Assembly: GCA_041569895.1 (NCBI GenBank)
Contig: JBFFXF010000003.1
Location: forward strand, 1 to 62,242
Length of the DNA stretch: 62,242 bases
Direction: 5' to 3'
DNA from: Planctomycetota bacterium
GTDB taxonomy: Bacteria > Planctomycetota > UBA8108 > JACQVS01
Shown: positions 8,777 to 42,565 of the stretch, piece after piece
Layout of the letters: each line of letters begins with the position of its first letter
Position numbering within the stretch: position 1 is the stretch's first letter
Notes under the pieces: generated by a model
What the model was told of the DNA's origin: nothing
Database searches by the model: none
Seen by the model: only the letters and a program-made list of their open reading frames with translations
Made by a program: the position numbers and the translations under genes

Positions 8777-8882
8777 TGCTCGCGATCAAACGGCTTCGTG
8801 AGAACAGCCCGAGTCCGGCTGGCGAACCGCCGCCACCCGGTCGAATCGTTATTCTTACCAGAGATTCCAGTACATTTCCATC

Positions 8883-18100: not shown

Positions 18101-21100
18101 GCGAAGAGTTGCGAGACGATGCTGCTGATCGACGCAGCGGACGCGTTCTCCAGGGCGACAACACGCAGCTCGCGCGCATCCGCCGATCGTCCGCCGTCGA
18201 GCTCGCCGATGATCTTCTCGATCAACGCCATGTGCTCCGCCGTCGCGGTGACCACGAGGCGGTTGCCGGTGACGTCGCCAACGACCAGGGCGTCCGCCGC
18301 GCCGCTTCCGGGGGCGCCCTTCACCTGGCTCTGGTAGACCTGCTCGACCGTCCCGGCGAGCTGCGTGACGTCCGCCGCGCCGACGTCGAAAGCCCGCAGC
18401 ACGCGCGGTCGCGCGTCCTCGGCCCGGTCGAGCTGCTCGACGATCACCGCGGCCGCCTGGAGATCCCGCGGCTCGCCGGAAACGACGATGGTGTTGGTCT
18501 TCGGATCGGCGCCGACGCTGACCCGGGGTACCGCTCCGCTCGCGGTCCGGCGCACGAGCGCGTTCGACAGGATCGTCGAGACCTGCTGAGCGTCGGCGTT
18601 CTCGAGTCGGAGGACGCGCGTGTCGTCGGTCTGCGTGCTCGCGGCGTCCAGCATGCTGACGATCGCCTCGATCGCGGTCAGCTCCGAGCGCGGCGCGTTG
18701 ATGATGAGGCGATTCGCCGTTGAATCGGGGAGCACGAGGACGCGCTCCGTGCGCGCGCCGGGACGGCCGCGGGCGCGCTCGCGGTAGAGCCGGGAGACGG
18801 TCTCGGCGAGCTCCGTCGCGGAGCCGGTCCGCAGCTCGTAGACGCGGGTGTCGACCGCCTCCGGCGCGGCGCCCGCGTCGAGCGTCGCGGCGATCTCGTC
18901 GATGAGCGCGAGGTGATCGGGACGGGCGATGACGAGGCACCGCCCGGTGGTCGCGTCGCGAACGAACTCGGCGTCGGCGGGGCCGAGCTCCGGCCGGTCC
19001 TCGACACGCACGCGGTAGAGCTGCTCGAGGAGCGGCACGACGCGGGAGAGCTCCTCGGCGCTGCCCAGCGCGAGCACGCGCGTCTCGCGCGGCAGGCGGT
19101 TCGCCGGACTGCGCACGCGTTCGAGAATCGCCGCGATGCGCTCGAGGTGCGACCGGCGACCGGTGACGATGAACCGGCGGTTCGCCGAGTCCGCGATGAA
19201 CACGGCGTCCGCCGCCCCACCGGTTCGCCGCGAGACGCCCTCCTCGCGGTAGAGCTGCTGGACGATCGGCAGCAGTCGCTCGACCTCCGCGGCATCGGTG
19301 AGCTCGAAGATGCGCGTCTCTCGCTCGACGGCCTTCGGCGCGACATCGAGCGTGTCGACGATCTCCCGCACCGACTCGAAGTCGGCCTCGGTCGCGATGA
19401 CGATCAGCCGATTCGCGGTCGGATCGGCAGTGATCGACGGTTGCCTGCCCGCATCCTCGCGACCCCTGGCGCGCTCCTCGCGCGTGCGCGCGACCAGCGG
19501 CGCCAGCTCGTCGGCGCGACGGTGCTCGAGCTCGATCACTCGCAGGGCCCGCTCGGTGCGGCCCGGTTCGACGTCGAGCTCCGTGACGATGGACTGGACC
19601 GCCTCGACGTCCGCCGTGCGGCCGGCGACCACGACGACGTTGGTCGAGTCGTCCGGCGAGACACGGACACGCTCGATGACCTCGCCGCGCTCGTCGCGTG
19701 GATTCATCACCTTGGCAATCGCCTCGGCGACGCGCGCCGCGGGCGCCCTGGTGAGCTGGAAGACGCGCACGTCCTGCTCCTGTGGCGCCGTCTCGTTGAG
19801 CCGATCGACGATCTCGCCGACGACGTCGAGCTCGTCTCGCGGCGCGGTGACGATCAGCCGCGACGCGGAGTCGTCCGGAACGATCCTGGCGAGCGTGCGG
19901 TACGTCGGACCGCGCACCTGCCGCATCGACTCGACGAGCGTCTCGGTGACCCGGGGCGCGAGCACGCTCGCGCTCCCCGACCTCAGCTTGAAGACGCGCA
20001 GCTCACGCGGTTGACGGCTGGCATCCGTGTCGAGCTGATCGACTATGCCGGACGCCGCCTCGAGCGCGTCGGAGGGGCCGCGGAGCACCAGACTGTTGCT
20101 GCGCTCGTCGACGAGGATGCGAACGCGCGGGCGCTCCGGATCGGTGTTGATCACCTTGGCGAGGATTCCCTCGATTTCCGAGGCGATCGCCGTGGTGAGC
20201 CGCACCACCCGCGTCGAGTCGCTCGCCGGCCGCGATCCCTCCGGATCGAGCTTGCGAACGAGCTCCTCGACGCGCTCGATCTCCGCCGTCGGACCGGTGA
20301 CGATCAGACGATCGCCCTCGAGGCCGGCGGTCAGTCTCGCCGCCCCTCCGTCCGGATCGCGTCCGTCGATCTGGGCGCGGTAGATCTGCTCGACGAGCGG
20401 GAGCAGCTCGGACGCGCGCGCGCCGTGAAGCTCGATCGCCCGCGTATCGCGGCGGCGCGCTCCGGAGCTCTCGGACTCGAGCTGGCGGAGGACGGTCGCA
20501 ACCCGCGCGATCTCGTCCGGCGTGCCGGTGACCAGAATGCGGCGCGACGTCGGATCGGCGAGCAGCGTCGCGGGACCGCCCTCCGGCTGCGGCCGCCCGG
20601 CGAGCTGCGACTCGTACACCTGCCTGACGAGCGCGAGCATCGACTGCGCGTCTCCGGCGACCTCGAGCGGCATCGTCTGGCGCTCGGGCACCGACTGCTG
20701 ACCGCGGAGTTTTTCGAGCAGCGACGCGACGCGGTCGAGCTCCTCCGCCGGACCCACCGCGATGATCCGCCTCCCCGGAGCATCGGCCTGGATCGTGGCG
20801 CGACGTTCCCGTGGACCGGTGAGGCTCGCCGTCTCCGCCGCGTAAACGGTCTGGAGGAGCGCCGACAGCCGCTCGACCTCGGCCGAATCCGCCAGCGCGA
20901 AGACCCGCGTCTCGTGCCCGGCCAGCGGCCGCTCGTCGCCCTCGAGCCCAGCGATGATCGTGGCGATGCGATCGAGATGCTCGACGCGCCCGGTGACGAT
21001 GAGACGACGGTTCGCCGCGTCCGGCACGAACACCGCATCGGGCGGGCCGAGGGACGCGGGCTCGCCACGGAGCTGCTCCTCGTAGAGCTGCCGCGCCAGC

Positions 21101-28000: not shown

Positions 28001-29536
28001 TCAGCTCCCGTCATGCCGCTCCGCGTCGCCGCGCAGCGGGAAGGGCAGTCCGACGCGGGTAATGTCCCGCAGATACGTGATCCGGGGCCGGTCGCGTCCC
28101 GTGTCGATGACCGCCTCGACGACCCTGAAACGACCCGATGGTACACCAAAGCCGACCACCTGCACACGAAACTGGTACCCGCGCGCGACGAGCCACGGCG
28201 CGAGGCGCCGGAAGCGCTCGACGTCGACAAGCCCCTCCTCGAGCAGCCACGCCGTCGTCCGTCGTCGTGCCTCGTCGAGGTCCCGGCGCCTGGCGACGAT
28301 CGATGCCGCGAGCGCCCGGTCGATTCCGGGCACCAGCGCGAGCATATCGGCGGAGGCGGTGTTGACGTTGACGGTGCGAGCGATGAACCGGTGCCACGGA
28401 TGCGTGCGGGTCTTCTCGAGGAGCTCCCCGATCCGGTCGGGACCGACGCCGGACTCGATCCAGACCTTGCGCCCGTCCTCGTCGTCGATCTCGCGCCGCG
28501 CGAGGAGGAGATCGACCGGGTGACCGAACACCGCCGGTGGCTCGTGCGTTTGCCTCCGATCGTCGCCGCCCTCGGCGTCGCGATGGCGCTCCGCGTCACG
28601 CCTCGCCTGCCGCCGGACGGCCGCGATGTACTCGAGCGCGCGCTGCGAGAGATCGACCTCGGCGAGCCGCTCGATGTCGCGGTTGAGGTCGACCTGGAGG
28701 CGCTGCTCGTGATCGACCGACCACCCGATCCCCCACACGGTGAGACGGCCGCGCAGCCCGCCGTCGAGGACGCCGTCCGCATTGTCCGGCGGGAAGCTGT
28801 CGAGCTCGTCGTTCTCGAAACGGTCGAGCACATGGTTGAGGTTCGCGTCCTCGCCGTAGAGCGCGCGGGCATCGAGGCCGCGCACCAGGAGCAGCTCGTC
28901 GAGGCTGGCGAGGCGTCCGTTGCGGATGCGGTACGGCGCACCGGCCGCGCGATAGTCCTCCTGCTCCGCGCCCTCGCGGCGCCGGTCGTGGTCGTGATCG
29001 ATGTAATCGATGACCGCATCGGCAAGCGCCGGCGTCATGCCGGGCATGCGCGCGAGCAGCTCCGCGTCGACGGCGTTGACGTTGAAGCGCGACGACTCAT
29101 CGACGACGCCATACCGAACGCCGCCCGTGACGCCACTCGAGACGCCACTCGAGACGCCGGCCGAGTCCACGTCGGCCGGCGCGAAGACCGTGAAGTACCA
29201 GCGGTCGAGGCCGTCGTCGTGCACGAGGCGGTTGCGAAAGACCGCCGGGTTGTCGGTCCAGGCCTCCGGCCGGGAGCCATGGCGAAACACGACTTCGGCC
29301 GCCGCGTGCACGCCGCTCATCGCCGCGAGCCAGGCCTGCTCGCCACCACGTCCAGCGTCCGCGGCCGCGTGCTCGGCGCGCACGCGGTAGAGGAGACTGA
29401 TCGCCAGCATGCCGGCGAGCATGCTGACGACGAGGACCGCCACCAGCGCGAGGCCGGCGTCGGACGCGGTCGAACGGCGGTCTCGCGACGACCGCCACGA
29501 CCATGCCGGGGATCCCGTGCGCGTCGCGGGCATCAT
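28001..29536 (-). CDS. gspK: GspK-like minor pseudopilin
   Basis: G/LALVAVLVV prepilin without E5, DESSRFNVN, LDELLLVRG, VNVNTAS HhH-like motifs; ATGA overlap with the upstream gene. Confidence 0.85.
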   Translation of the reverse strand: MMPATRTGSPAWSWRSSRDRRSTASDAGLALVAVLVVSMLAGMLAISLLYRVRAEHAAADAGRGGEQAWLAAMSGVHAAAEVVFRHGSRPEAWTDNPAVFRNRLVHDDGLDRWYFTVFAPADVDSAGVSSGVSSGVTGGVRYGVVDESSRFNVNAVDAELLARMPGMTPALADAVIDYIDHDHDRRREGAEQEDYRAAGAPYRIRNGRLASLDELLLVRGLDARALYGEDANLNHVLDRFENDELDSFPPDNADGVLDGGLRGRLTVWGIGWSVDHEQRLQVDLNRDIERLAEVDLSQRALEYIAAVRRQARRDAERHRDAEGGDDRRQTHEPPAVFGHPVDLLLARREIDDEDGRKVWIESGVGPDRIGELLEKTRTHPWHRFIARTVNVNTASADMLALVPGIDRALAASIVARRRDLDEARRRTTAWLLEEGLVDVERFRRLAPWLVARGYQFRVQVVGFGVPSGRFRVVEAVIDTGRDRPRITYLRDITRVGLPFPLRGDAERHDGS

Positions 29537-30213
29537 CCCGACCTCCACTGCGTCGGACCGACTCGGGTCGCCGCCGGTATATGGATCACCCGGCGGAAGA
29601 GATCGGCCGGATACTCGTCGAGATCGCCGTCGTGCGCGAACGGCTCGGCGCCGAGGTTGACCTCGACGCCGCGGGGCAGGTGTCCGTGGCGCCACTCGTC
29701 CTGCCACTCGCGACCGTCGTGATAGCGGAGGCGGAGGAACTGCAGACGCGACGAGACCGGCTCGCGGAGCCGGCGACGGCCGTGGTCCTCGCCGGCCAGG
29801 AGGCGGAGCTCGCGGCGTTCGATGCCGCCCCGGTGGCCGCCCCGGTGGCCGCCCCGGCGATACTCGACCCAGCGCAGATCGGTCTGCGGCGCCGGCGTGG
29901 AGACGCCCGGCTCGCGCGCCCACGCCGACTCGTCGGGCAGGACGGTGGTCAGGAGCTCGATGCGGTCGCGGTGCCCCGTGATGCCGCGGCGGTGGCCGTG
30001 GTCGATGGTCACCGCCTGGAGCTCGCGCGTCAGTCGCTCCATCACCAGTCGCGCCGCCGAGACCACCTCGACTTCCCGATCCATCTGGTCTCGCACCGAC
30101 GCGGCGTGCCGGTAGAAGACCAGCACCGCGACGAGCAGACCCGACGCGATGGCGACGGCGACGAGGACCTCGATCAGCGAGAAGCCGCGGTCCCGGGGCG
30201 CGCGCCGATTCAT
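29533..30213 (-). CDS. Minor pseudopilin (GspJ position)
   Basis: RG/FSLIEVLVA prepilin motif; LRYHDGREWQDEW...LPRGVEV. Confidence 0.85.
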   Translation of the reverse strand: MNRRAPRDRGFSLIEVLVAVAIASGLLVAVLVFYRHAASVRDQMDREVEVVSAARLVMERLTRELQAVTIDHGHRRGITGHRDRIELLTTVLPDESAWAREPGVSTPAPQTDLRWVEYRRGGHRGGHRGGIERRELRLLAGEDHGRRRLREPVSSRLQFLRLRYHDGREWQDEWRHGHLPRGVEVNLGAEPFAHDGDLDEYPADLFRRVIHIPAATRVGPTQWRSG

Positions 30214-30776
30214 CGACCTGCCTCCCGGCGCCTCCGTTCGCGCTCTCCGATCTCCTCGGCGAAGATCTTCCTGACCAGCTCGAGCCGCGCCGGATCAACT
30301 TGCGGCTCCGGGCGCTCGACGCGCTCGGTGGAGTTGACCCTGACGAGCTGCGTCAGACGCCGGACGACGCCGGACGGGACGTGCCTGACGACGACCTCGA
30401 TGCGCTGCAGCGACATCGGCCGATGACGCGTGGGATCCGGAGGGGCGGCGATGGCGGTCTCGATGCCCGCGTCGGCGGGCGTCACCTCGATCTCGCGCGT
30501 CCAGCCGTCCTCTCGCATGTCCTCGATCGGCTCCTCGGGCAGCGAGACGGCCGGCAGCAGATCCATCTGGATCAGCGACATCGTCGTCACCGCGAGGTCG
30601 GCGGCGTGCGTCTCGTGGCGCAGGCGCTCCACGCCGCCGATCGACGAGCCGAGCCCGACCAGCACCGCCGTCGCCGCCGCGACGAAGAGCCCGAGCGCGA
30701 GGACCACCTCGAGGAGCACGGCTCCTCCGCATGGCGTCCCACGGGACTCCGGTACCGTGTCGCGCGGGGGGATCAC
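30210..30776 (-). CDS. Minor pseudopilin (GspI position)
   Basis: G/AVLLEVVLAL with E at +5; GTG 30776 overlaps the upstream TGA. Confidence 0.75.
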   Translation of the reverse strand: MIPPRDTVPESRGTPCGGAVLLEVVLALGLFVAAATAVLVGLGSSIGGVERLRHETHAADLAVTTMSLIQMDLLPAVSLPEEPIEDMREDGWTREIEVTPADAGIETAIAAPPDPTRHRPMSLQRIEVVVRHVPSGVVRRLTQLVRVNSTERVERPEPQVDPARLELVRKIFAEEIGERERRRREAGR

Positions 30777-31477
30777 CGTGACCTCCCCCGGCGATCGTGC
30801 CGTGTCCGCTCGCGGCGATTGCCGGTGTCGTCCCTCGCGCGGTCCGGATCGAAGCGCGACAGCGCCCCGGTGATGCCGTGGACGCGGATGCCGATGGTGC
30901 GCGGCTCCGGCTCGCGGGCGCCAGCCTCGGCGATGACGATCTGGACCGCATCGGCCGAGCCGTCCGGATGGAAGGTGACCGGGGCGACGGTCGCCGCGTC
31001 CTGACGCGGCCCGCCGTCTTTCCACGCCTCGCGCGATGACGGGCCCATGGCAGCCGGCTCGTTTTCGCCCTCGCCGGCGACGAGCTGGCGGAGCGGCGTC
31101 ACCGACACCACCTCGACCAGATCACCGAGCCCGCGCGCCGCCCACGCGGCGCCGGAGACGTCGTCGAACTCTCCGGGACGACCGAGCGGGTCGGTCTCGC
31201 GCTCGACGCGGACTCGATCGAGTGCTCCCTCGGCGGCTCCCTCGGCCGTGCTCTCCGCCGCGAGCATGACGCGCATCCGGCGGCCCGTGCGAGCCGCCTC
31301 GGCGCGCGCGAACCGCAGCAGCGTCTCGACGCGGCCAGCGCCCTCGTCGAGCCGCGAGCCTCGCCCGAGGTCGACGAAGTTGAAGACGAGCGCGCCGAGG
31401 AGCACGACGAGCAGCGCGAGGGCGATGGTGCCCTCGACCAGTGAGAAACCGCCGTCGCGGCCGGACGCCCGGATCAC
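30773..31477 (-). CDS. Minor pseudopilin (GspH position)
   Basis: G/FSLVEGTIAL, LLRFARAEA, VTFHPDGSA; GTG start just after the gspG stop. Confidence 0.8.
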   Translation of the reverse strand: MIRASGRDGGFSLVEGTIALALLVVLLGALVFNFVDLGRGSRLDEGAGRVETLLRFARAEAARTGRRMRVMLAAESTAEGAAEGALDRVRVERETDPLGRPGEFDDVSGAAWAARGLGDLVEVVSVTPLRQLVAGEGENEPAAMGPSSREAWKDGGPRQDAATVAPVTFHPDGSADAVQIVIAEAGAREPEPRTIGIRVHGITGALSRFDPDRARDDTGNRRERTRHDRRGRSR

Positions 31478-31478
31478 G

Positions 31479-32054
31479 TCAGCGCGTCCTGCCCGGTCCC
31501 GGAAGCGCCGGCACGCCACCGCCCGTTCCCGGGCCCACCGGCGGGGTGCCGATGTCGGCGGGAGTGCCCGCTCCACCCTCGATGCCCTCGACGTCGTAGA
31601 GGCGGATGTCGTCCTCCGTGTCCGGCTGCCCGTCCGGCCCGATCGAGTAGAGCTCGTACTCGGGGCCGGCGGTGTCGCCGGTCAGCGTCCGATCGCGCAT
31701 CTTGTAGACGATTGTGTTTCCCCACGCGTCGTCGAGAGTCGCGCCGCGCTTCAGATACGGTCCGGCCCAGCGCTCGCCGATCCGCGCGTTCTCGAAGTTC
31801 GGCTTCCTGACGAGCGCCGCGAGCCCTCCCTGCTCTTCCGACGGATACGTGCCGACGTTGGTCTTGTAGAGCTGCAGCGCCTGCTCGATCTGTTCGAGCT
31901 TCAGCCGCGTCGTGTTGCGCTGGGCGCCCTCCTGCTGCGGCAGCACGAAGATCACCAGCGCGCCGGCGAGCATCAGGATGATGACGATCACCAGCAGGAT
32001 CTCGACGAGCGAGAATCCGGCATTCGGTCGCGAACGAATCCATCGCATGGTCAT
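31479..32054 (-). CDS. gspG: Major pseudopilin GspG
   Basis: G/FSLVEILLV, YPSEEQGGLAAL, WAGPYL, DAWG, SIGPDGQPDTEDDI. Confidence 0.93.
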   Translation of the reverse strand: MTMRWIRSRPNAGFSLVEILLVIVIILMLAGALVIFVLPQQEGAQRNTTRLKLEQIEQALQLYKTNVGTYPSEEQGGLAALVRKPNFENARIGERWAGPYLKRGATLDDAWGNTIVYKMRDRTLTGDTAGPEYELYSIGPDGQPDTEDDIRLYDVEGIEGGAGTPADIGTPPVGPGTGGGVPALPGPGRTR

Positions 32055-32097
32055 GGGGCGTGTCTCCTTTCAGTCCTCGTTGTCGCTCTTGCTGGTC

Positions 32098-32170
32098 GCG
32101 TCCCCGTCCCCGTTCCCGTGCCCGTGCCCGTGCCCGTCTCCGCCTCGAACGCTTCGGGAACGGGTACGGC
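32098..32170 (-). repeat. Short GGGVAC array with upstream complementary arm, between gspF and gspG
   Basis: Minus strand reads CCGTACCCGTTCCCGAA, spacer, then GGGCAC x3, GGGAAC, GGGGAC, GGGGA. Confidence 0.8.
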
Positions 32171-32229
32171 TGCATGTCCGGGTGAGCCACTCATGATCAA
32201 CTCCGTGTATGAAGTCGTCGATCTCTCCA

Positions 32230-33426
32230 TCAGTTCCCGAGCGAGCCCGCGAGCGTGAAGATCGGCAGCAGAAGGCCCATGGCGAGAAACCCGATCGCCA
32301 CGGCGAGAAGGCAGAGGATCACGGGCTCGACGAGCCGCACGGCGTGATCGACTTGACGGTGCGTGCGACGATCGACCGTGTCGGCGATCTGGACCAGCAC
32401 CTTCTGGAGCTGGTTCGACTCCTCGGCGACGGTGATCATCGCGAGCACCTGCGGCGGTATGAAATCGCCCTGGCCGAGCGGTCCCGAGAGCGTCTCGCCC
32501 GCGCGGACGCTCTCGGCGGCCTCCGCGACGCGCGCCGCGAGGAGACGCGACCCGGTGGCGTCCTTGCTGATCGACAGCGCCTGGAGGAGCGGCACGCCGT
32601 TGGCGATCATCGTACCGAGGATGCGGCAGAACCGCGCGATCGCCACCATGCGCAGCGCCGGTCCGACGACGGGAACGCGCAGTCGAACTCTCTCGAAGAG
32701 ACTCCTGCCGGCGCCGCTGCGCAACGCCACCCCGACGCCGAGGCCCGCCGCGACCGCGCCGACGAGCAGCAGCGGCCAGTACGAGCGCACCAGCGTGCTG
32801 AGCCCGAAGACGACCGTCGTCGGCAGCGGCTTGTCGACACCCTCGAGCAACGGCTCGAACCGCGGCACGAAGAAGACCAGCGCGCCGAGCATGATCGACG
32901 TGCCGAGGAGCGTCAGCAACGCGGGATAGATCAGCGCGCCGCGCACCTTGCCGCGCAGGTCGTCGAGGCGCTCGATGAAGTCGGCGAGACTCGAGAGCAC
33001 CTCCTCGAGAAAGCTGGCGCGCTCGCCCGCCTGCACCATGGCGACGTGAAGCAGCGGGAAGGTCTCCGGATGGTCGCGCATCGCCTCGTGCAGCTCCTTG
33101 CCATCCGCGACCGCGTCGTGCACCTCACGCAGCAAATCTCGCAACCGGCGGCTGACCGACGAGCGCATGATCGATCGCAGCGCTCGAAGTAGCGGGACGC
33201 CCGAGCCGAGCAGGTCGCCGAGCTGCCCGTAGAACATGCCGAGATCCCGCGAGCGCACTCTCGAGGAGCGCTGCTCGCGCGAGCGGTCCCTGCGGCGCGA
33301 CACCTCGACCGGTAAGAGCCGGCGCTCGTCGAGGATCCTCAGCACCGCGGCCTCGGTGTCCGCCTCGATGACCCCCGAGGCGCGGTCGCCGGTCACGGTT
33401 CTTGCGATGTAGGTGAAATCGGGCAT
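32230..33426 (-). CDS. gspF: Type II secretion inner-membrane protein GspF
   Basis: MPDFTYIA, SGVPLLRAL, MVQAGE, ALIYP, NGVPLLQAL, LVEP. Confidence 0.93.
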   Translation of the reverse strand: MPDFTYIARTVTGDRASGVIEADTEAAVLRILDERRLLPVEVSRRRDRSREQRSSRVRSRDLGMFYGQLGDLLGSGVPLLRALRSIMRSSVSRRLRDLLREVHDAVADGKELHEAMRDHPETFPLLHVAMVQAGERASFLEEVLSSLADFIERLDDLRGKVRGALIYPALLTLLGTSIMLGALVFFVPRFEPLLEGVDKPLPTTVVFGLSTLVRSYWPLLLVGAVAAGLGVGVALRSGAGRSLFERVRLRVPVVGPALRMVAIARFCRILGTMIANGVPLLQALSISKDATGSRLLAARVAEAAESVRAGETLSGPLGQGDFIPPQVLAMITVAEESNQLQKVLVQIADTVDRRTHRQVDHAVRLVEPVILCLLAVAIGFLAMGLLLPIFTLAGSLGN

Positions 33427-33434
33427 GAGGAATC

Positions 33435-35105
33435 TCACTCCGCCGTCGACCGGAGGACCTCCTCCGGAGTCGTCACGCCCTCGCGGACCCGGAGCCAGCC
33501 GTCCTCGCGCAACAGCCGCAGACCCGACTCGCGCGCCATGCGGGCGAGAGCGCTCGCCGGAGCGCGCGACATGATCCCCTCGGCGACCTCGTCGGTGGTG
33601 GTCAGGAGCTCGAAGAGGCCGGTCCGGCCGCGGTACCCGGTGTTGCGGCACTGACGGCAGCCCTCGCCGCGCCAGAGGTTCGACCCCGACGCGAGCTCGA
33701 GATCGCGGGGGAGGTCCTCGGGCGCCGGCGTGTACTCGACCTTGCAGTGGGCGCAGATGCGCCGCACCAGCCGCTGGGCCATCGCGCCGGTGAGCGTGCT
33801 GGCGACCAGGAACGGCTCGACGCCCATGTCGATCAGTCGCGTCGCCACGGACGCCGCGTCGTTCGTGTGCAGCGTCGAGAGCACGAGGTGTCCGGTGAGC
33901 GCGGCCTGGATCGCCGCCTCGGCGGTCTCGAGATCGCGGATCTCGCCGATCATGATGACGTCCGGGTCGTGTCGCAGGATGGCGCGCAGGCCGCGCGCGA
34001 AGGTCATGCCGACCTTCGGGTGCACCGGGATCTGGTTGACGCCGTCGAGGTGGTACTCGACCGGGTCCTCGACCGTGATCAGCTTGATCCCGGGACTGAC
34101 GATGGCGTTGAGCGCCGCGTAGAGCGTCGTTGTCTTTCCGCTGCCCGTCGGCCCGGTCACGAGGATGACGCCATGCGGGCGCGCGATCATCGTCTGGAAG
34201 CGCGCGAAGGTGTCCTCGCCCATGCCGAGCTCCGGAAGCGCGTAGAGGATGGTCGCCTTGTCGAGAAGGCGCATCACGACGCCCTCGCCGAAGATCATCG
34301 GAATCACGCTGACGCGCACGTCGATCTGCCGCTCCCCGACCTGGAACTTGATGCGGCCGTCCTGCGGCAGCCGCTTCTCGGCGATGTTCATGCCGGCGAG
34401 GATCTTGATGCGGCTGACGATCGCCGCGCGAAAGCGGTGGATCTGCGAGGGCAGCGAGGCGTGCTGCAGGACGCCGTCGATGCGGTAGCGGATCGACAGC
34501 TCGTTCTCGAACGGCTCGACGTGAACGTCACTGGCGCGCTCGTTGATCGCCTCGAGGATGATCTCGTTGACGAGCTTGATGACGCTCGCCTCCTGCGCCA
34601 TGGCGAGGAGGTCCTGCGTGTCCTCGTCGTCGGTCGAGATCACGTCGACCGTGTCAGCGTCGACCATCTCGTCGATGGTGTCCCCGCCGACGCCGTAGTG
34701 CGCCTTGATCAGCTTGTCGATCTCTTCCTGCGGCGCGAGCACCGGCTCGACGGTGAGCCCGGTCATCAGGTGGATCTCGTCGAGCGAGTAGAGATCGTAG
34801 GCGTCGCTCGTCACGACGCGGAGGGTGCCGTTCTGCCTGGCGACCGGCACGATGCGCTTGCGGTGCACGAAGCGCGACGGGAGCAGCCGGAGGACCTGCG
34901 GGTCGATCGCCATCTCGCCGAGGTCGACCACCTCCAGGCAGAGCTGCTCGCCGAGGAGCTCGAGCAGGGCACGCTCCTCGACGTGGCCCAGCTGGATCAG
35001 GGCCCGATCGATCCGGATGCCATCGCGGTCCTGAAGCTCCTTCGCCTCGCGGAGCTTCTGCGGAGTGATCAGACCACGCTGGAGGAGTTCATCGGACAGG
35101 CTCAT
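33435..35105 (-). CDS. gspE: Type II secretion ATPase GspE
   Basis: ASDVHVEP, EKRLPQDG, GPTGSGKT, EDPVEY, LRHDPD, TGHLVLSTLH, two CxxC pairs. Confidence 0.96.
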   Translation of the reverse strand: MSLSDELLQRGLITPQKLREAKELQDRDGIRIDRALIQLGHVEERALLELLGEQLCLEVVDLGEMAIDPQVLRLLPSRFVHRKRIVPVARQNGTLRVVTSDAYDLYSLDEIHLMTGLTVEPVLAPQEEIDKLIKAHYGVGGDTIDEMVDADTVDVISTDDEDTQDLLAMAQEASVIKLVNEIILEAINERASDVHVEPFENELSIRYRIDGVLQHASLPSQIHRFRAAIVSRIKILAGMNIAEKRLPQDGRIKFQVGERQIDVRVSVIPMIFGEGVVMRLLDKATILYALPELGMGEDTFARFQTMIARPHGVILVTGPTGSGKTTTLYAALNAIVSPGIKLITVEDPVEYHLDGVNQIPVHPKVGMTFARGLRAILRHDPDVIMIGEIRDLETAEAAIQAALTGHLVLSTLHTNDAASVATRLIDMGVEPFLVASTLTGAMAQRLVRRICAHCKVEYTPAPEDLPRDLELASGSNLWRGEGCRQCRNTGYRGRTGLFELLTTTDEVAEGIMSRAPASALARMARESGLRLLREDGWLRVREGVTTPEEVLRSTAE

Positions 35106-35228
35106 GGGCCCGCTCCGCACTGCGTCAAGCCGTGGTGCCGCGAGGTCGGCTCGACTTGTGCACAGCAAGGCATTGTCCCGCAGGCCGATGCCCGAATCAA
35201 CGACAAAGCGGACTCGGGTCGGAGGCCG

Positions 35229-38200
35229 TCACCGGGGCGCGGTGAGCTGCACCGTCGCCGTCTCGCCGGCCCGGATCTCGACCGTACCGAGCTCGATCGT
35301 GTCGGCCCGCTCGGGATCGAACACGCGACGCTCGTTCGGCCGCATCGTGAGCAGCAGGATGGAGTACCGGCCGGGTCGCACGCTCCGCTTCGAGAATTCG
35401 CCGGTGTCGGGACTGACGTACGTCATCGGCGTGTCCGCAGGCGGCGCGACGCCCTCGCCTTCCGCGGGCGCCGGAGAGTCGCCCGGTATCGGCCGCAGCA
35501 CGACGAAGTGCCACGGATCCGATGGCTTGCGGCGGGTGAGGTCGGCGATGGTCCCCTCGAGCTGGCCTGCAGGCTCCATCCGGAAGCGCAGCTCCGGTTC
35601 GACCTCGGCGGGGAGCTCGACCTCGCGCGTGCTCTCCTCCGTCCAGTAAGCCGGGTGCTGGACGCCGATCGAGTGACTCCCCGCGGCGAGCCCCGACACG
35701 ACGGCGACGCCCCGATCATCGGTCTGGGGGATCGACGAGTGCGATCCGGCGTCGTCTCGCCGGTGCGCCTGCACGATCACGCCGGAGATGCCGACCCCGT
35801 CGCGGTCGACGACGACGACGGTGACGCTGAGCCCGCGATCGAGTCGCGCCGTCAGGTCGGTGACGCGACCATCGAGGACCTCGGCCTCGGCGACTCGCTG
35901 CGCGAATCCGTCCGCCTCGACGGTGACGCGGACGCGTCGCGGCGCGAGCCCCTCCCAGACGTGCCGCCCCTCGGCGTCCTCGACCTCGGTCACCCGTCCC
36001 CCGTACGCCGGCCACGCGCGCGGGCCCTCCCCGTCGCCGACCGCGTCCGTCACGAACGCACGGTACCGCTCGACGGGACGACCCGTCTCGGCCGCGACGA
36101 CCGTCAATCGGAGCCCGCCGAAGCGCCGTAGCACGATCTCCGGCAGGCGGTCGCCGGCCTCGAACGACGAGATCTCGACCGGCTCGAATCCCTCCGCGCG
36201 CGCGACCACGGAGAAGCGCCCGGGCGGCAAGTTCTCGATTCGGTAGCGGCCGTCCGCGCCCGTGCGTGCCGTCGCGACGCCACGACCGGCGAGTCGCCGG
36301 AAGAGCTGCGCCTCGCGACCGCCCGGCTCGTCGGCGGGCTGCCGATCGGCGGCGAGGAATGCGACCACCTCGATCCCCTCGAGCACGGCGGCGCTGCCAT
36401 CGACGACGCGTCCCTCGAGGACACCGCCGGCGCGCAGCACGACATCGAGAGTGACCGGCTCGTCCGCGACCTGAATCCCGGGGATGCGCTCGGGCGCGAA
36501 GCCGCGCATGGCGCCGACCTCGAGCACGTACTCGCCGGGCTCGACGCCGCGAATCCGGTAGCCGCCGTCCTTCCCCGCGTAGACCGTCTTGCCGCCGTCG
36601 CCACCGAGGAGCGCGACAATCATCGCCTCCTCGCCACCGAGCGACACCGGGCGGGCGAGATGCACCCGCGCTCCCGCCACTGGCGTCCCGTCGGGGCCAG
36701 TCACGCGGCCCGCGATCGAGGCGCCCGGCGCCAGCACGATCTCGATCAACACGTCGTCGCCCTCGGGGATGTCGGCGAGCGCGAGGCGCCCGCTCGCGTA
36801 CGCGGGATGCGCGCCGACGATCTCGACGCGCTCGAACATCGGACCGATGACACGACCGGGAGGCCGGAGCTCGAATCCTCCCTCCGCATCGGTGACGGCG
36901 GCCGTCCCACCGCCGGGCGAGAGCATCATCGCGAAGGCGGGCATGCCGGGGACCTCGAGGCGCACACGCGCGCGCGGGATCGGCTCGCCCTCCGGGTCGA
37001 TGACGCGGCCGTGCAGCACGCGAGTGCGCACCAGCCGGATCACTTTCGGATCGGCGGTATCGTCGGCCCCGACCGAGAGCTGCTCGAACGCCGTCGCGTA
37101 CTCGGGATGCTGGAATCGCGCGAACACGGACTGCCGCGCGCCGGGAGCGAGCGAGTGCCCCGACCCGGGCTCCGCCGCCAGCCCGCGGATGACGACGCGC
37201 CCGCCGGCGTCGCTCGAGGTCGGCGACTTCGAAACGCCGGGCGAGACTCCGGACACGCGCACGCCCTCGATCGGTGAGTCGTCCTCCGCGTCGACCACGC
37301 GCGCCACCGCCACGAGCCCTCGTTCGAGCTGCAGCCGAACGTCGAGCCGGTCAACCTCGACGTCGGCGACGCTCGCGGGCGCGAAGGTGTCCGCCGTCGC
37401 ATTGACGGTGTACCGGCCCGCGGGAATCGGCTCGAGCACGAAGCGGCCGCTCTCATCGGTCGACGTCTCGACGAGCACGGGCCCGGGCGTGACTCCCGGC
37501 AGCGCGGGATGTTTCTTCTCGATCCACACGCGGGCGTCCTCGACGGCCGCGCCGTCGGGAGAGAACACGGTCCCCGCGATGGCGTGCGGCGTCTCGAGGG
37601 CGAGCTCGCCGAGGTCGGTCTCCGGCGCGGCGATCTGCACCTCGAAGACCGTGATCGGGAAGCCGTCCTCGCGCACCTCGAGCTCGAACGGCCCGCGCGC
37701 GAGTCCATCGATCCGCAACCGGCCGTTCTCCGCGACGCCTCGCCGCACGTTCTCGCCGAGGACGTCGAAATCCATCTGCATCATCGCGACCGGATTGTCG
37801 AAATCGCGGCGCTGTTTCGGCTGCATGGTCCACCTCGCGCCATCGACCGGAGCTCCGTCCCGACCGACGACGGTGCCGGTGACGACGGCGCCCCGCTCGA
37901 GCGGGATCACGTGTCCTTCGGATCCGGCCGCGACGCGCTGCACGCGGCTCTCGAGGAAACCGGGCGCTCTCACCGTGAGGTCGTACAGCACCGGCTCCAG
38001 CGACCGCACGATGAACTCGCCATCGGGTCCGGAGTGGGACGACCGGTCGCCGATGACGATGTCGCCCTCGAGCAGACTCTGGATCGTCCCCATCAGCTTG
38101 CCCATCGCCGCGCCCGCGCTCCTCGAGCTCGGCTCCGCGCGCACGCGGGCATCCGCGATCGGATCGCCGCGCGCGTCGACGACCCGTCCCGAGATGGCGT

Positions 38201-38816
38201 GGCCGCGGACCAGAGTGACGTCCGCGGAGGCCGTGACCCCCTCCTCGACGACCGCCCACGTGCCGGTCTCGGGGAGATGGTCGTCGTGCCGGACGTACAG
38301 CCGGTAGTCCCCGCCCGGCAGGCCGTGGATCGCGTAGCGGCCCTCGGTGTCGGTGCGCGACCGCGAGACCGTGTCGAGGCGCGCCTCGTACCGGCTGCGC
38401 AGCAACTGCACCGCCGTGGCGGGATCCCCGGATTCCGAGAGCTCCGACTCGGCCGCCGTGAGCACCGCCTGCCACTCGTCGATGTCGACCGCCGCGACCT
38501 CCGCGTCCGGGATCCCGACGCCGTCGACGTCGGAGACGATGCCGGTGATCGAGGGCGGGTGGTCGGGCAGGGCCGGCCCGGGTTCGTCGTCCCCGGTCGT
38601 CGAGCCCGCACCCGCGGGGAGCGATGGGTCCCCCGGCGCGCCGGCAGAGCCCTCGCCGGCGTCGACGGGAGCACCCGCCACCGGCGTCGTGTCGCTCGAC
38701 TCGCGCTCCGGATCGCCGCGCTCACCGGGACGGAGGAAGTAGAGGAACGCGAGAATCGCCACCGCGGCAAAGACGCCGAGCGAGATCATCAGACTCGCGA
38801 AAAGCCCACGGTTCAT
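35229..38816 (-). CDS. Membrane-anchored protein with about 11 carboxypeptidase-regulatory-like beta-sandwich repeats
   Basis: N-terminal hydrophobic anchor; repeated 'I.GRVVD..G.PI..ARV...TD..GRF....L.PG.Y'. Confidence 0.85.
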   Translation of the reverse strand: MNRGLFASLMISLGVFAAVAILAFLYFLRPGERGDPERESSDTTPVAGAPVDAGEGSAGAPGDPSLPAGAGSTTGDDEPGPALPDHPPSITGIVSDVDGVGIPDAEVAAVDIDEWQAVLTAAESELSESGDPATAVQLLRSRYEARLDTVSRSRTDTEGRYAIHGLPGGDYRLYVRHDDHLPETGTWAVVEEGVTASADVTLVRGHAISGRVVDARGDPIADARVRAEPSSRSAGAAMGKLMGTIQSLLEGDIVIGDRSSHSGPDGEFIVRSLEPVLYDLTVRAPGFLESRVQRVAAGSEGHVIPLERGAVVTGTVVGRDGAPVDGARWTMQPKQRRDFDNPVAMMQMDFDVLGENVRRGVAENGRLRIDGLARGPFELEVREDGFPITVFEVQIAAPETDLGELALETPHAIAGTVFSPDGAAVEDARVWIEKKHPALPGVTPGPVLVETSTDESGRFVLEPIPAGRYTVNATADTFAPASVADVEVDRLDVRLQLERGLVAVARVVDAEDDSPIEGVRVSGVSPGVSKSPTSSDAGGRVVIRGLAAEPGSGHSLAPGARQSVFARFQHPEYATAFEQLSVGADDTADPKVIRLVRTRVLHGRVIDPEGEPIPRARVRLEVPGMPAFAMMLSPGGGTAAVTDAEGGFELRPPGRVIGPMFERVEIVGAHPAYASGRLALADIPEGDDVLIEIVLAPGASIAGRVTGPDGTPVAGARVHLARPVSLGGEEAMIVALLGGDGGKTVYAGKDGGYRIRGVEPGEYVLEVGAMRGFAPERIPGIQVADEPVTLDVVLRAGGVLEGRVVDGSAAVLEGIEVVAFLAADRQPADEPGGREAQLFRRLAGRGVATARTGADGRYRIENLPPGRFSVVARAEGFEPVEISSFEAGDRLPEIVLRRFGGLRLTVVAAETGRPVERYRAFVTDAVGDGEGPRAWPAYGGRVTEVEDAEGRHVWEGLAPRRVRVTVEADGFAQRVAEAEVLDGRVTDLTARLDRGLSVTVVVVDRDGVGISGVIVQAHRRDDAGSHSSIPQTDDRGVAVVSGLAAGSHSIGVQHPAYWTEESTREVELPAEVEPELRFRMEPAGQLEGTIADLTRRKPSDPWHFVVLRPIPGDSPAPAEGEGVAPPADTPMTYVSPDTGEFSKRSVRPGRYSILLLTMRPNERRVFDPERADTIELGTVEIRAGETATVQLTAPR

Positions 38817-38878
38817 CGGCTGCACGCTCTCATCAAAAGGTCCCCCGCCGGTCCACCAGTGTCCTTCCACGAGTCTAA

Positions 38879-38940
38879 CCCCCACGTTGCAAAAATCCGG
38901 TTCCGTTCCCGGTCCCGGACCCGGAACCCGGTCCCGACCC
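38879..38940 (+). repeat. Truncated modular element (head plus hexamers) in a divergent intergenic region
   Basis: CCCCCACGTTGCAAAAA followed by CCGGTT/CCCGGT/CCCGGA units. Confidence 0.7.
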
Positions 38941-39090
38941 GCCCGCGCGGCCTGCTTTCGGTTCTCGGCGAACCTCACTCGCGGTGCGATCTGCCGAGAG
39001 CACCGCGAGGGCCGGCGTGGGAAAACCGTGGTCCCCGGACGGGTCGATTGCTACGATGAGCCGGGTCACGTCAATGCGAGAGGGAGTCCC

Positions 39091-41019
39091 ATGAAAGCGA
39101 AAGTCTCGATCACAGGCCGTCTTGCCACCTGTGTGCCGGCGGCGCTCGGCCTTCTCGTCGCGAGCGGTGCGGCGGCGCACGACACCGTGACGTTCGACCG
39201 CGACATCAAGCCGATCATCCAGCGCACGTGCGGCGGGGCGACGTGCCACGTCAACCGGAGGGAGAGCGGCGTCGACCTGACGTCGCACCAGAGCACGATC
39301 GAGAGCGTCGGCACGCAGTACCGCGGTCCGATCGTCATTCCGGGCGACCCCGACGCAAGCCCTCTGATGGACAAGATCAACTCGCAGCGGCCGCGCTTCG
39401 GCGCTCGCATGCCGCGAGGCCAGACGCCGCTCACGGACATCGAGATCAACCTGTTCCGGCGGTGGATCCGCGAGGGCGCGCTCAACCGCCACATCCCGCA
39501 GCACGGCGACGCCAACAACGACGATGACCTCGACGTCACCGACGCGGTCTTCATCCTGAGTTTCCTCTTCCAGCGCGGCGAGGCGCCGGATTGCCTCGCG
39601 CTCGCCGACGCCAACCGCGACGGGGCGGTCAACGTCAGCGACGCGGTCTTCCTGCTGGTGCACCTCTTCGTCGGCGGCAAGGCGCCGGCCGAGCTCACCG
39701 CGGCGGAAGAGGAGTCCTGCGAGAAAGCGCAGGAGCTGACCTTCGAGAGCATCTACACCAAGGTCTTCCGCGCCAGCTGCGCCTTCTCATCGTGCCACGC
39801 GAGCGAGGGCGGCAAGGGTGGCCTGTCGCTCGGTACGATCGACGAGGCGTACGAGCAACTCGTCGGCGTCGAGCCGCAGAACGAGGCCGCGAGGGCGCAG
39901 GGCCTGCTCCGCGTCGACGCCGGCAAGCCCGACAACAGCTTCCTCCTCCGCAAGCTCGGGCAGCCCGGTCCGGGCGAGGGGAGCCGCATGCCGGCCAGCT
40001 CGGCGGAGCCGCTGCCCGCGGACGTCGTCAACGCCATCCGCGAGTGGATCCTCGCCGGCGCGCCGCGGACGGAATCGGTGCCCGGTGTGCCGGACATCGG
40101 CGAGATCCCGCCGCCGACTCTCGGCGAGCTGACCCCGCCTCCCGTTCCAGAGAACGGCGTCCAGTTGCACCTGCCGCCCTTCTCCGTGGCGCCCAGGACC
40201 GAGCGCGAGATCTTCTTCTTCGCCGAGCGCCCGTTCGCCGACGTCGGGACGGATGAGATCTTCGTCGAGCGGATCGACATCCACATGCTCGACAGCAGCC
40301 ACCACTTCATCATCTACGAGTGGCTCGGGCGAACGAATCCCGGCCCGGGGCTGCGTCCGCTGCCGGGCGTCGTCGATATCCTGAACTCGCGACGGTTCGT
40401 CGTCGGCTCGCAGCAGTCGTTCTTCACCCTCGCGTTTCCCGAGGGCGTCGGCCTGCGTTTCACCAAGGACACGAACTTCGACCTCAACTCGCACTACCTG
40501 AACCTGAACGGCACCGAGACGCTGAGGGCCGAGGTCTACATCAACTTCTTCTTCGCCGAGCCCGGAGAGATCACCACGGTCGTCAAGCCGATCTTCGAGA
40601 TCAATCCGGTGATCAACGTGCCGCCGAACCAGACGAGAACGACCGAATGGCGTTTCCCCGGCCCGGTCGGCATCCAGCTCGACCCGGCGCTCGGCGCGCT
40701 CGGACGCGTCACGCGGGAGACGCACATCTATACGCTCTCCTCGCACATGCACCGCCACGGCGTGCGTTTCAGCGCGTTCCACACCCGCAACGGCCGCGAC
40801 TTCGACCCTCCTGCGAGGATCTACGACAACTTCGACTGGGACGATCCGGTCTACACCGTCTACGACCCGCCGTTCGTGCTCAGCCCCGGCGACGGCATCC
40901 GCTTCACGACAACGCACACGTACCACGACCCGCCATCGCCGAACGCCCCACCACTGACCTTCGACATCACGTCGGAGGACGAGATGGCGATTCTGCTGGG
41001 GTATTACGCGATCCCGTAA
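39091..41019 (+). CDS. Exported cytochrome c / dockerin-like / cytochrome c / copper monooxygenase-like fusion
   Basis: Signal peptide; CGGATCH..RMP and CAFSSCH..RMP; GDANNDDDLDVTD and DANRDGAVNVSD; SHH, NSHY, HMH and EDEM; GGAG upstream of ATG 39091. Confidence 0.85.
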   Translation: MKAKVSITGRLATCVPAALGLLVASGAAAHDTVTFDRDIKPIIQRTCGGATCHVNRRESGVDLTSHQSTIESVGTQYRGPIVIPGDPDASPLMDKINSQRPRFGARMPRGQTPLTDIEINLFRRWIREGALNRHIPQHGDANNDDDLDVTDAVFILSFLFQRGEAPDCLALADANRDGAVNVSDAVFLLVHLFVGGKAPAELTAAEEESCEKAQELTFESIYTKVFRASCAFSSCHASEGGKGGLSLGTIDEAYEQLVGVEPQNEAARAQGLLRVDAGKPDNSFLLRKLGQPGPGEGSRMPASSAEPLPADVVNAIREWILAGAPRTESVPGVPDIGEIPPPTLGELTPPPVPENGVQLHLPPFSVAPRTEREIFFFAERPFADVGTDEIFVERIDIHMLDSSHHFIIYEWLGRTNPGPGLRPLPGVVDILNSRRFVVGSQQSFFTLAFPEGVGLRFTKDTNFDLNSHYLNLNGTETLRAEVYINFFFAEPGEITTVVKPIFEINPVINVPPNQTRTTEWRFPGPVGIQLDPALGALGRVTRETHIYTLSSHMHRHGVRFSAFHTRNGRDFDPPARIYDNFDWDDPVYTVYDPPFVLSPGDGIRFTTTHTYHDPPSPNAPPLTFDITSEDEMAILLGYYAIP

Positions 41020-41073
41020 TCCCGGTCCCGGACCCGGTCCCGAAATCTGCTCGACGCCGCTGGCGGGACTCTG

Positions 41074-41312: not shown

Positions 41313-42470
41313 TCAACCGAACACCGAGAACTCGCCCACGTCACGCCCCACGAGTCTCCCCGCGATGAGATCCGCGTCGCGCGGGCCGAGCAGTATGCCG
41401 CTGCGGTAGTGACCCGCGACCACCCACACGTCCCCCTCGGCGAGGATGGGGCCGCCGCGGCGGAGGACCTTCGGTCTGAGGCCCGCCCAGTGGCGGAGGA
41501 CGTCGGTCGGTTGGAGCGACGGCAGCGCGGCGCGGGCGCGGTCGAGGAGCTCCTCGGCTCCCGTCGCGGTCGTGCTGTCGTCGAAGCCGACCTCCTCGAC
41601 GGTGGCTCCCACCCACAGCGTGCCGTCCGGACGCGGGATCAGATAGACGCCGCCGATGTCGAGCATGCACGGCGGCGGTTCCGCGCACCGCAGCGCGAGC
41701 ATCTGCCCCCGGACCGGCACGATCGGCGCCTCGAGGGGCAATCCCGCGCGCTCGAGGAGCTCGGTGGTCCACGCGCCCGCGCAGACGACCACGCTGTACC
41801 GCGTGACGCTAGGCCCCGTGACGCGAGGCCCCGCGAGCCGCTCGACGTCGCCGGAGCGCTCGAGCAGCACGTCGACCCCCTTCTCGGCGCCGTCGCTCAC
41901 GCGCTCGAGGCGCACGTCGTCGAATCCCTCGCGCAGGTCGACTCCTCGCGCTGAAGCCGAGCGGCGCAGCGCGGCCAGGAGATCGGGCGGGTGAACGCGA
42001 GCCGTGCGTTCGAGGAAGAGCCCGCCGCGGAGGGCCGGCGACAGTCCCGCGAACTCGCGCGCGAGCTCGCGGGCGTCGTACCACCGGCCGGGACACGTCG
42101 CGACGTCGGCGCGCGCGAACGTGCCCGCCAGGTCCGCGGCGTCGTCGTCGGTCTCGGCGAGGTAGAGCATGCCGCTCTCGATCGACTCGATCGCGACGCC
42201 GGTCTCGGCCTGCAATTCGTCGAGGAAGGCGCTGTACCCGTCGTAGCTCGCCCCACACGCGCGCTGGTACGCCGAGCGACGCCACATCGGCGCCGGCAGG
42301 ATGCCCGCGGCGGCGCCCGAGGCTCCCGCGCCGACGCGGTGGCGCTCGACGAGGATCACCGACACGCCGAGCCCCGCCAGCCGTCGCGCCAGGCAGAGCC
42401 CGACGATGCCGCCACCGAGGATGACGACTCGCTCGCACTCGCTTCGCTGATCCGGCTTCCGTGCGCTCAT
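41313..42470 (-). CDS. FAD-dependent oxidoreductase, glycine oxidase ThiO/DAO-like
   Basis: GGGIVG, ASGAAAGIL, PVRGQ, YLIPR, WAGLRP, GHYRSGILL. Confidence 0.88.
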   Translation of the reverse strand: MSARKPDQRSECERVVILGGGIVGLCLARRLAGLGVSVILVERHRVGAGASGAAAGILPAPMWRRSAYQRACGASYDGYSAFLDELQAETGVAIESIESGMLYLAETDDDAADLAGTFARADVATCPGRWYDARELAREFAGLSPALRGGLFLERTARVHPPDLLAALRRSASARGVDLREGFDDVRLERVSDGAEKGVDVLLERSGDVERLAGPRVTGPSVTRYSVVVCAGAWTTELLERAGLPLEAPIVPVRGQMLALRCAEPPPCMLDIGGVYLIPRPDGTLWVGATVEEVGFDDSTTATGAEELLDRARAALPSLQPTDVLRHWAGLRPKVLRRGGPILAEGDVWVVAGHYRSGILLGPRDADLIAGRLVGRDVGEFSVFG

Positions 42471-42565
42471 CAACGACCAGAGTACACTCCGATCCCGGTC
42501 CACTGGAAGCGCGATGGCGTTGCAGCGGTAGCGGGCGAATGAGCGAACGGATATCATTCGCCAGC

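Follow-up and report, generated by a model that had tools for sequence, protein, structure and literature searches.

Can a two-copper monooxygenase core of the kind known from PHM and DBH draw its electrons from cytochromes built into the same polypeptide chain? PHM and DBH are textbook animal enzymes. Animals use such a two-copper core to make noradrenaline and amidated hormones, and the electron route to and across the two distant coppers is still debated. The question is raised by a gene on the forward strand of a 62,242-nucleotide stretch of DNA from a marine Planctomycetota bacterium (GenBank assembly GCA_041569895.1, contig JBFFXF010000003.1), which is referred to below as the window. 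The gene, at 39091-41019 (+), is a single open frame of 642 residues plus a stop codon. We consider it probable, at about 0.68, that its product is a Sec-exported two-copper monooxygenase of the PHM/DBH type, in which two in-chain c haems would replace ascorbate as the electron supply and a dockerin-like module would provide a tether.

Architecture and conservation of the 642-residue protein

The translation reveals a protein that consists, in order, of a signal peptide, a PSCyt1-type cytochrome c domain, a dockerin-like module, a second cytochrome c domain, a proline-rich linker, and a C-terminal core. Every motif from which the initial annotation of this DNA had derived a similar composition was found at its place in the translation of 39091-41019. 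The 642-residue frame is the coding one among many overlapping open reading frames, as indicated by its codon-position guanine-cytosine (GC) contents of 0.65/0.48/0.89; the DNA around the gene has 70% GC.

A protein search against a set of 5.8 billion proteins gave 95 hits, including 45 full-length relatives with 46-65% identity and at least 95% coverage, which come mostly from Planctomycetota metagenome-assembled genomes. The query and these 45 sequences form the orthologue alignment used throughout, whereas three hits with 79-84% coverage (P0032, P0040, and P0048) and all lower hits were left out. M1 is nearly invariant as the start in this alignment. Among the residues kept in all 46 sequences are C47, C52, H53, C230, C235, H236, M300, and P301 of the cytochrome domains and H404, H405, H468, H552, H554, H556, and M632 of the core, together with two further cysteines, C168 in the dockerin-like module and C210 just after it. 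As these motifs are retained in relatives with 46-65% identity, the motif set represents more than chance. The features of the gene and its product are as follows, with coordinates in the window.

39080-39086 (+): Shine-Dalgarno-like GAGGGAG, purine-rich and 4 nt 5' of the ATG, read from the sequence
39091-39177 (+): signal peptide covering residues 1-29; its n-region is basic, its core hydrophobic, and its residue at -1 small; it ends in AAA followed by H, and the cleavage site (AxA before H) was judged by eye
39178-39180 (+): His30, the predicted first mature residue, invariant in 46/46 orthologues
39178-39489 (+): haem domain 1, residues 30-133, a PSCyt1-type cytochrome c domain (PF07635, E = 1.3e-7) with invariant C47/C52/H53
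39229-39249 (+): CGGATCH of haem domain 1, residues 47-53, read in the translation
39406-39414 (+): RMP of haem domain 1, residues 106-108, read in the translation
39499-39690 (+): dockerin-like Ca-binding module, residues 137-200, with a near-cut-off PF00404 score and the invariant C168
Residues 140-151 (+): first dockerin-type loop, DANNDDDLDVTD, read in the translation
Residues 173-184 (+): second dockerin-type loop, DANRDGAVNVSD, read in the translation
39730-40068 (+): haem domain 2, residues 214-326, the homology of which to haem domain 1 follows from cross-hits of hidden Markov models (HMMs)
39778-39798 (+): CAFSSCH of haem domain 2, residues 230-236, read in the translation
39985-39993 (+): RMP of haem domain 2, residues 299-301, read in the translation
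40069-40155 (+): proline-rich linker, residues about 327-355, read from the sequence and accompanied by a dip in the predicted local distance difference test score (pLDDT), the block mean of which drops to 64 at residues 341-350 of the full-length model
40156-40566 (+): PHM-like N-subdomain, residues 356-492, with the CuH-type ligands H404/H405/H468 as placed by the model and the profile alignment
40567-41016 (+): PHM-like C-subdomain, residues 493-642, with the CuM-type ligands H552/H554/M632 as placed by the model and the profile alignment
Residues 403-405, 466-469, 552-554, and 629-632 (+): core motifs SHH, NSHY, HMH, and EDEM, respectively, read in the translation

The C-terminal core has the predicted fold and copper ligands of PHM and DBH

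The AlphaFold model of the core (residues 341-642) has a pLDDT of 95.5 and a predicted template modelling score (pTM) of 0.91. When this model was submitted to Foldseek, DBH (4zel) was retrieved first (E = 5e-13), followed by about 30 PHM entries down to E = 7e-9. Structural alignment by VIA-align gave a Z score of 22.7 to PHM (6ala_A), with a root mean square deviation of 2.7 Å over 256 residues, and 21.6 to DBH, whereas the best unrelated fold, PNGase, reached only 9.5. The identity to PHM in the structural alignments is only about 14-16%.

To place the core within its family, residues 341-642 were used in a HMMER scan of 1.84 billion cluster representatives, which returned 762 clusters with E values of at most 1e-3, of which 206 reached 1e-10 or lower. 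The query and 103 of the 150 listed hits were aligned, with 47 short fragments or partial matches left out; the 104 core sequences span roughly 23-63% identity to the query core. The profile of this family matched PHM chains in the PDB with E = 3e-18 and DBH with E = 1e-15. In the profile alignment, H404, H405, and H468 fall on H107, H108, and H172 of PHM, which are the CuH ligands, and H552, H554, and M632 fall on the CuM ligands H242, H244, and M314; the PHM numbering was verified by counting along the chain (offset 44). H404, H405, H468, and H554 are invariant in 104/104 sequences, while the conservation of H552 and of M632 is 90% or higher. The predicted structure and the family profile thus confirm that the core belongs to the PHM/DBH fold with the full two-copper ligand set aligned, as the initial annotation had proposed from the motifs. 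Its expectation of matches to PF01082 and PF03712 failed: neither entry matches the query protein, even at E ≤ 1, while across the family PF03712 (Cu2_monoox_C) matches 58/104 members and PF01082 one. As Pfam misses the query core, the link to PHM/DBH needs the family profile or the structure.

The C-terminal double jelly-roll could also be read as a non-catalytic binding module on a surface cytochrome, similar to a carbohydrate-binding module or PNGase F, since the fold is common to PNGase F and double jelly-roll proteins (Z 7-9.5), the core receives no Pfam call, and sulfatases lie near some Planctomycetota relatives. We regard this as highly improbable, because the core scores Z 22.7 to PHM compared with at most 9.5 to PNGases and because a binding module would not need six metal-ligand positions conserved over 104 sequences.

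The positions that hold the substrate in PHM differ in the query. PHM residues R240, N316, and Y318, which we take to be the anchors for the carboxylate of the glycine-extended peptide, correspond in the profile alignment to S550, I634, and L636, of which I634 is invariant in the orthologues. With these presumed anchors replaced by Ser, Ile, and Leu, the substrate would therefore not be a glycine-extended peptide, and the alignment indicates that the protein is not an orthologue of PHM proper (EC 1.14.17.3). In addition, Q170 of PHM aligns with the invariant N466. Judged from these replacements, the substrate pocket looks less polar than that of PHM.

The two cytochrome domains carry CX4CH motifs

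The first cytochrome domain matches PF07635 (PSCyt1) over residues 52-101 with 32.6 bits against a cut-off of 22 (E = 1.3e-7), in line with what the initial annotation had anticipated, and the same entry matches 45/46 orthologues. The second domain receives no Pfam call. However, HMMs built for the two domains from the orthologue alignment hit each other at 1.6e-8 and 2.8e-7, and the two domains are therefore homologous. Both haem motifs are CX4CH and not the canonical CXXCH. Among the 103 core relatives, 57 carry a cytochrome domain just upstream of the core, and all 57 have the His of the haem motif at the same alignment position. At that column the motif is CX2CH in 24, CX3CH in five, and CX4CH in 28 of these relatives, and this interchange supports real haem sites. 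The distal "MP" likewise falls in one column in 62/103 relatives. Within the organism's own genome, the 29 PSCyt1-like domain hits comprise 24 with CX2CH, four with CX4CH, and one partial motif, and a CcsA-type cytochrome c assembly gene is present. PMC11492766 includes both CX4CH and CX3CH among the haem c motifs that have been described. Overall, the conservation pattern makes it likely, and in our estimate strongly so, that the CX4CH domains bind haem.

Alternatively, the CX4CH domains could be degenerate, haem-free structural or metal-binding modules, in which case the core would receive its electrons from a small molecule or from another protein. Apart from the non-canonical motif itself, three observations would fit this. 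The candidate distal Met of haem 1, M107, is Met in 40/46 orthologues and Glu (REP) in 6/46; ResB (PF05140) was not found in the genome assembly, which is 89.8% complete, so that this is not taken as absence; and the haem-2 motif region (residues 231-242) has a pLDDT below 50 in the full-length model. The low confidence at the haem site is expected, however, because the model was built without the haem cofactor. Moreover, Cys/Cys/His are invariant in both domains, the candidate distal Met of haem 2, M300, is kept in 46/46 orthologues as part of an invariant Met-Pro, and the column in question holds the canonical CX2CH in 24 relatives, CX4CH being itself a described haem c motif (PMC11492766). 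Haem-free domains are thus very unlikely.

The nearest solved relative of the haem domains is FoxE (5mab), which the family profile matched with E = 3.5e-6. Single-sequence matches to FoxE were weak, with E values of 0.009-0.3 overall and 0.13-0.3 for each haem domain alone against the PDB. Foldseek with the full-length model returned PHM/DBH and jelly-roll proteins only and gave no fold assignment for the N-terminal domains. Membership in the SO2930 family of dihaem cytochromes c (TIGR03806) was considered and rejected, as the match scored 30.1 bits where 313.3 are required and was confined to the C-terminal 94 positions.

An invariant histidine at the predicted mature N terminus

The residue that precedes His30 is always small in the 46 orthologues (Ala in 35, Gly in eight, and Ser in three). 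As His30 itself is invariant, it is the predicted first residue of the mature protein. It is kept in 46/46 orthologues, while the distal Met of domain 1 is not universal (REP in 6/46). An equivalent of His30 is absent from a paralogous cassette on another contig (C97, described below) and from the single-haem relatives, many of which start near "STW/STF/STY". On this pattern, His30 may serve to coordinate haem 1 or some other metal; N-terminal ligation of haem has a parallel in cytochrome f. A His-brace copper site at His30 was rejected, since domain 1 has no second invariant His besides the haem ligand H53.

Proposed electron supply to the copper core

We infer cofactor loading, the direction of electron flow, activity, and tethering as follows. 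The protein would be exported via Sec and is probably exposed on the cell surface or beyond it. The core would be a non-coupled two-copper monooxygenase with CuH on H404/H405/H468 and CuM on H552/H554/M632. Each PSCyt1-type domain probably carries one covalent haem c on its CX4CH motif, and the haems would be loaded in the periplasm, be reduced by an extracytoplasmic donor, and hand single electrons to the copper core in ascorbate's place. Two haems could hold the two electrons needed per turnover. CuM would then activate O2, and a C-H bond of a bound non-peptide substrate would be hydroxylated. Through its dockerin-like module, the enzyme is probably anchored to a partner that carries cohesin. 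Our analysis upholds the architecture and the PHM/DBH kinship put forward in the initial annotation, but to describe the enzyme as self-sufficient goes too far, since haems of the c type only pass electrons on and still have to receive them from a donor outside the protein.

Several observations weigh against this reading. Besides the variable distal Met of haem 1, the missing ResB, and the low confidence around the haem-2 motif, the full-length model has a pTM of 0.57, so that the domain arrangement is not fixed and no haem-copper distance can be derived. On the side of the core, the lack of any PF01082 or PF03712 match to the query extends almost to the whole orthologue group, where PF03712 matches 1/46. 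The core can also work with a separate donor, as follows from the 46/103 relatives without a cytochrome domain, and no conserved neighbour in 80 related loci points to a donor or a substrate. A complex prediction of haem domain 2 (residues 205-330) with the core (residues 341-642) and haem gave a score of 0.00 in two runs without controls and weighs neither way.

The main rival is a reverse flow of electrons, in which a substrate (or Fe(II)/Cu(I)) would be oxidised at the copper core and the electrons would leave through the haems, either towards the respiratory chain or towards an acceptor outside. In that case the protein would be an oxidoreductase or electron conduit feeding a cytochrome network and not an oxygenase. 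This is suggested by the nearest solved relative of the haem domains, FoxE (profile E = 3.5e-6), which is an Fe(II)-oxidising dihaem cytochrome, and by the paralogous cassette on contig C97, which heads a c3/c7-like multihaem protein and suggests an extracytoplasmic electron-transfer network. However, the complete O2-activating ligand set of PHM/DBH is kept, the CuM Met included, and no dehydrogenase is known among the members of the PHM/DBH fold. We therefore consider reverse flow unlikely.

Building on the monooxygenase reading, a more detailed picture can be drawn, although as a whole it is tentative and rather doubtful. The enzyme would be a surface-docked oxygenase whose haems store exactly the two electrons that PHM takes from two ascorbates and are recharged by a cytochrome network or by Fe(II). 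His30 would serve as the distal ligand of haem 1 or as part of a third metal site, and the substrate would be an extracellular non-peptide compound, probably hydrophobic or polymeric. Direct recharge by Fe(II) is considered here because the haem domains resemble FoxE.

Distribution of the core family and its domain variants

Of the 103 core relatives, 46 lack a cytochrome domain and 56 carry a single one. Two cytochrome domains are present in just one relative, a member of the query's own orthologue group, and on this distribution the two-haem form is specific to the query's Planctomycetota group. In Poribacteria the protein takes the form dockerin-cytochrome-core, with about 496 residues, and a type IX secretion tail is present in 24/104 aligned core sequences. 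When 20 genomes from the same family or order were sampled, 11 contained the core at E ≤ 1e-10, compared with 0/20 from other orders of the class, the latter being a sample and not proof of absence. Public annotation names these proteins hypothetical or "cytochrome c domain protein". In marine metagenomes, five DNA sequencing runs from two studies were listed for the sequence and no RNA run, which says nothing on expression.

The dockerin-like module and its paralogues in the genome

The module between the two haem domains contains two DxNxDxxxxxxD loops in a duplicated loop-helix pattern. With 22.5 bits, its match to PF00404 (type I dockerin) stays 0.4 bits short of the cut-off of 22.9, and the entry matches 20/46 orthologues at E ≤ 1e-3; PDB dockerins match the module weakly (E = 0.015-0.9). 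The paired loops named in the initial annotation are present, and the score lies just below the cut-off. PSCyt1 and Dockerin_1 are the only Pfam entries found upstream of the core.

The own genome was scanned as 36,899 six-frame open reading frames of at least 100 residues from the 7.37-Mb assembly. The module HMM built from the orthologues matched 345 of these frames with 367 domains (for example on contigs C10, C46, and C81), and the cytochrome-domain HMM matched 28. There are five matches to Cohesin (PF00963), three of them above the cut-off, and four of the five sit in two open frames of 8790 residues (contig C40) and 11316 residues (contig C9). Judging by these matches, this organism uses the module widely as a tag, plausibly one that docks proteins to giant partners at the surface. 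The 7.37-Mb planctomycete assembly could hold a very large non-cellulosomal cohesin-dockerin surface system.

No second close copy of the query protein was found in the own genome. A 1327-residue open frame at C97:18954-22934 (L084) begins with a CX4CH PSCyt1 domain (CGGASCH) and a dockerin, a cassette that has 47% identity to that of the query over residues 11-214. Behind the cassette lie Ig domains of the Big_9, He_PIG, and cadherin-like types, and a cytochrome c3/c7-like region is located near residues 1011-1057. Two other frames, C76:512-3724 (L082) and C165:7992-10574 (L083), represent a distant second type of fusion between a CXXCH cytochrome c and a PHM-like part, with the motifs VVHH, (Q)VHY or (Q)LHY, PHMHLRG, and EEMM or EEML. 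The C165 frame also carries a Redoxin/AhpC-TSA domain. Pfam gives no copper-monooxygenase domain in either.

Genomic neighbourhood

The gene stands alone. It is divergent from a 1249-residue CarboxypepD_reg-repeat protein (35229-38978, -) and convergent with the downstream gene for a DAO-family flavoprotein (41313-42557, -). A type II secretion cluster (PilM-like, GspK, J, H, G, F, and E) occupies 26231-35168 (-), one gene away, and the initial annotation had suggested that the protein could be its cargo. To examine conservation of this neighbourhood, 80 related loci with up to 8 kb of flank on each side were searched by tblastn with GspE, GspF, and six other window neighbours. None of these was found within 8 kb in any of the 80 loci, apart from one weak kinase hit (L003) that was ignored, and the proposed link to the secretion cluster was accordingly not supported. 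That the protein is a dedicated cargo of the adjoining system, with a functional gene position, would fit the cluster lying one gene away and the export of folded, cofactor-loaded cytochromes by type II systems in Shewanella. Against this stand the 0/80 loci with GspE, GspF, or another window neighbour and the orientation of the gene, divergent from its upstream and convergent with its downstream neighbour; we hold the cargo relationship to be quite unlikely. As the adjacency is not conserved, export by a type II system is possible but is not indicated by position.

The conserved loci are mostly from Poribacteria (L019, L022, and about 45-50 others, with the match at 8001-9485). Their neighbourhood comprises an SDR gene (51/80), a GT2 glycosyltransferase gene (48/80), and the dockerin-cytochrome-PHM-like gene, as well as a homocysteine S-methyltransferase/MTHFR fusion (49/80) and DUF6785/DUF6784 (46/80). 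This set was rejected as a group of functional partners, as it probably represents housekeeping synteny within one clade. The Planctomycetota loci (L004, L005, L006, and others) have sulfatases in 7/12 cases and an alpha/beta-hydrolase or esterase directly downstream in 6/12, and a PQQ_2 (PQQ-like) beta-propeller occurs in 4/12 of them and in 9/80 loci overall. One example each of the sulfatase, the alpha/beta-hydrolase, and the PQQ propeller was verified in Pfam; these are weak leads, and none of the three genes is present in the window.

Short GC-rich tandem units (tcccggtcccggacccggtcccg) begin directly after the stop codon, at 41020-41045, and the Pro-Gly-rich reading of the stretch at 38890-38950, upstream of the gene, suggests similar tandem units there. 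Next to the type II secretion cluster, a 4307-residue open frame with coding-type codon-position GC spans 12163-25086 (-).

Relation to known systems

In full-text literature searches, with subscription journals outside their coverage, no paper on a bacterial cytochrome-fused PHM-like enzyme was found. PMC8812541 describes PHM-family proteins as widespread in eukaryotes and PNGase F as widespread in bacteria. The bacterial family is large but unstudied. What is new here is the two-haem Planctomycetota form, the invariant N-terminal His, the shared cytochrome and dockerin cassette, and the count of haem-motif interchange. If the monooxygenase reading is correct, the in-chain cytochrome would offer a natural, spectroscopically visible electron donor for studying copper electron transfer and an ascorbate-independent route to extracellular C-H hydroxylation. 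Marine Planctomycetota, Poribacteria, and other phyla would then possess, in this family, oxidative enzymes acting outside the cell that have so far escaped recognition as a class.

Comparing the protein with PHM, the catalytic core of PAM (PDB 1PHM, 1SDW, and 6ALA), the two share a pair of jelly-roll subdomains and the alignment of all six copper ligands. Unlike PHM, the query is bacterial and predicted to be exported, its core is preceded in the same chain by two cytochrome c domains with a dockerin-like module, and it probably works without available ascorbate. DBH (PDB 4ZEL) and its relatives TBM and MOXD1/2 resemble the query in the catalytic fold and in having an extra N-terminal module before the core. 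In DBH this module is a DOMON domain, whereas the N-terminal part of the query consists of PSCyt1 cytochrome c domains and the dockerin-like module, and Pfam gives no DOMON match in the query protein.

The N-terminal parts have their own counterparts. FoxE of Rhodobacter ferrooxidans SW2 (PDB 5MAB), a dihaem Fe(II) oxidoreductase, has the RMP...(E/R)WI..GAP motif in common with the query, in both of its repeats, but lacks a copper domain. The planctomycete multidomain proteins with PSCyt1 (PF07635) are likened to the query by the PSCyt1 match; the query differs in its CX4CH from the CX2CH of 24/29 PSCyt1-like domain hits in its own genome. Type I dockerins (PF00404) share the duplicated loop-helix pattern, whereas the query organism is not cellulosomal.

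With respect to built-in or external cytochrome donors, two systems serve as precedents. Cytochrome c-fused copper nitrite reductases, such as those of Ralstonia pickettii and Pseudoalteromonas haloplanktis, have a class I cytochrome c as a built-in donor. However, these nitrite-reducing enzymes hold T1/T2 copper in a cupredoxin fold and are not jelly-roll oxygenases. CjX183 of Cellvibrio japonicus Cbp2D is, according to PMC8981238, a secreted c-type cytochrome domain that reduces lytic polysaccharide monooxygenases (LPMOs). It thus resembles the arrangement proposed here in that a secreted c-type cytochrome feeds a secreted copper oxygenase in place of ascorbate (PMC8981238). In that system the donor is a protein distinct from the enzyme, which is an LPMO with a mononuclear His-brace site, whereas the query combines the putative donor and a predicted PHM-type dicopper core in one chain.

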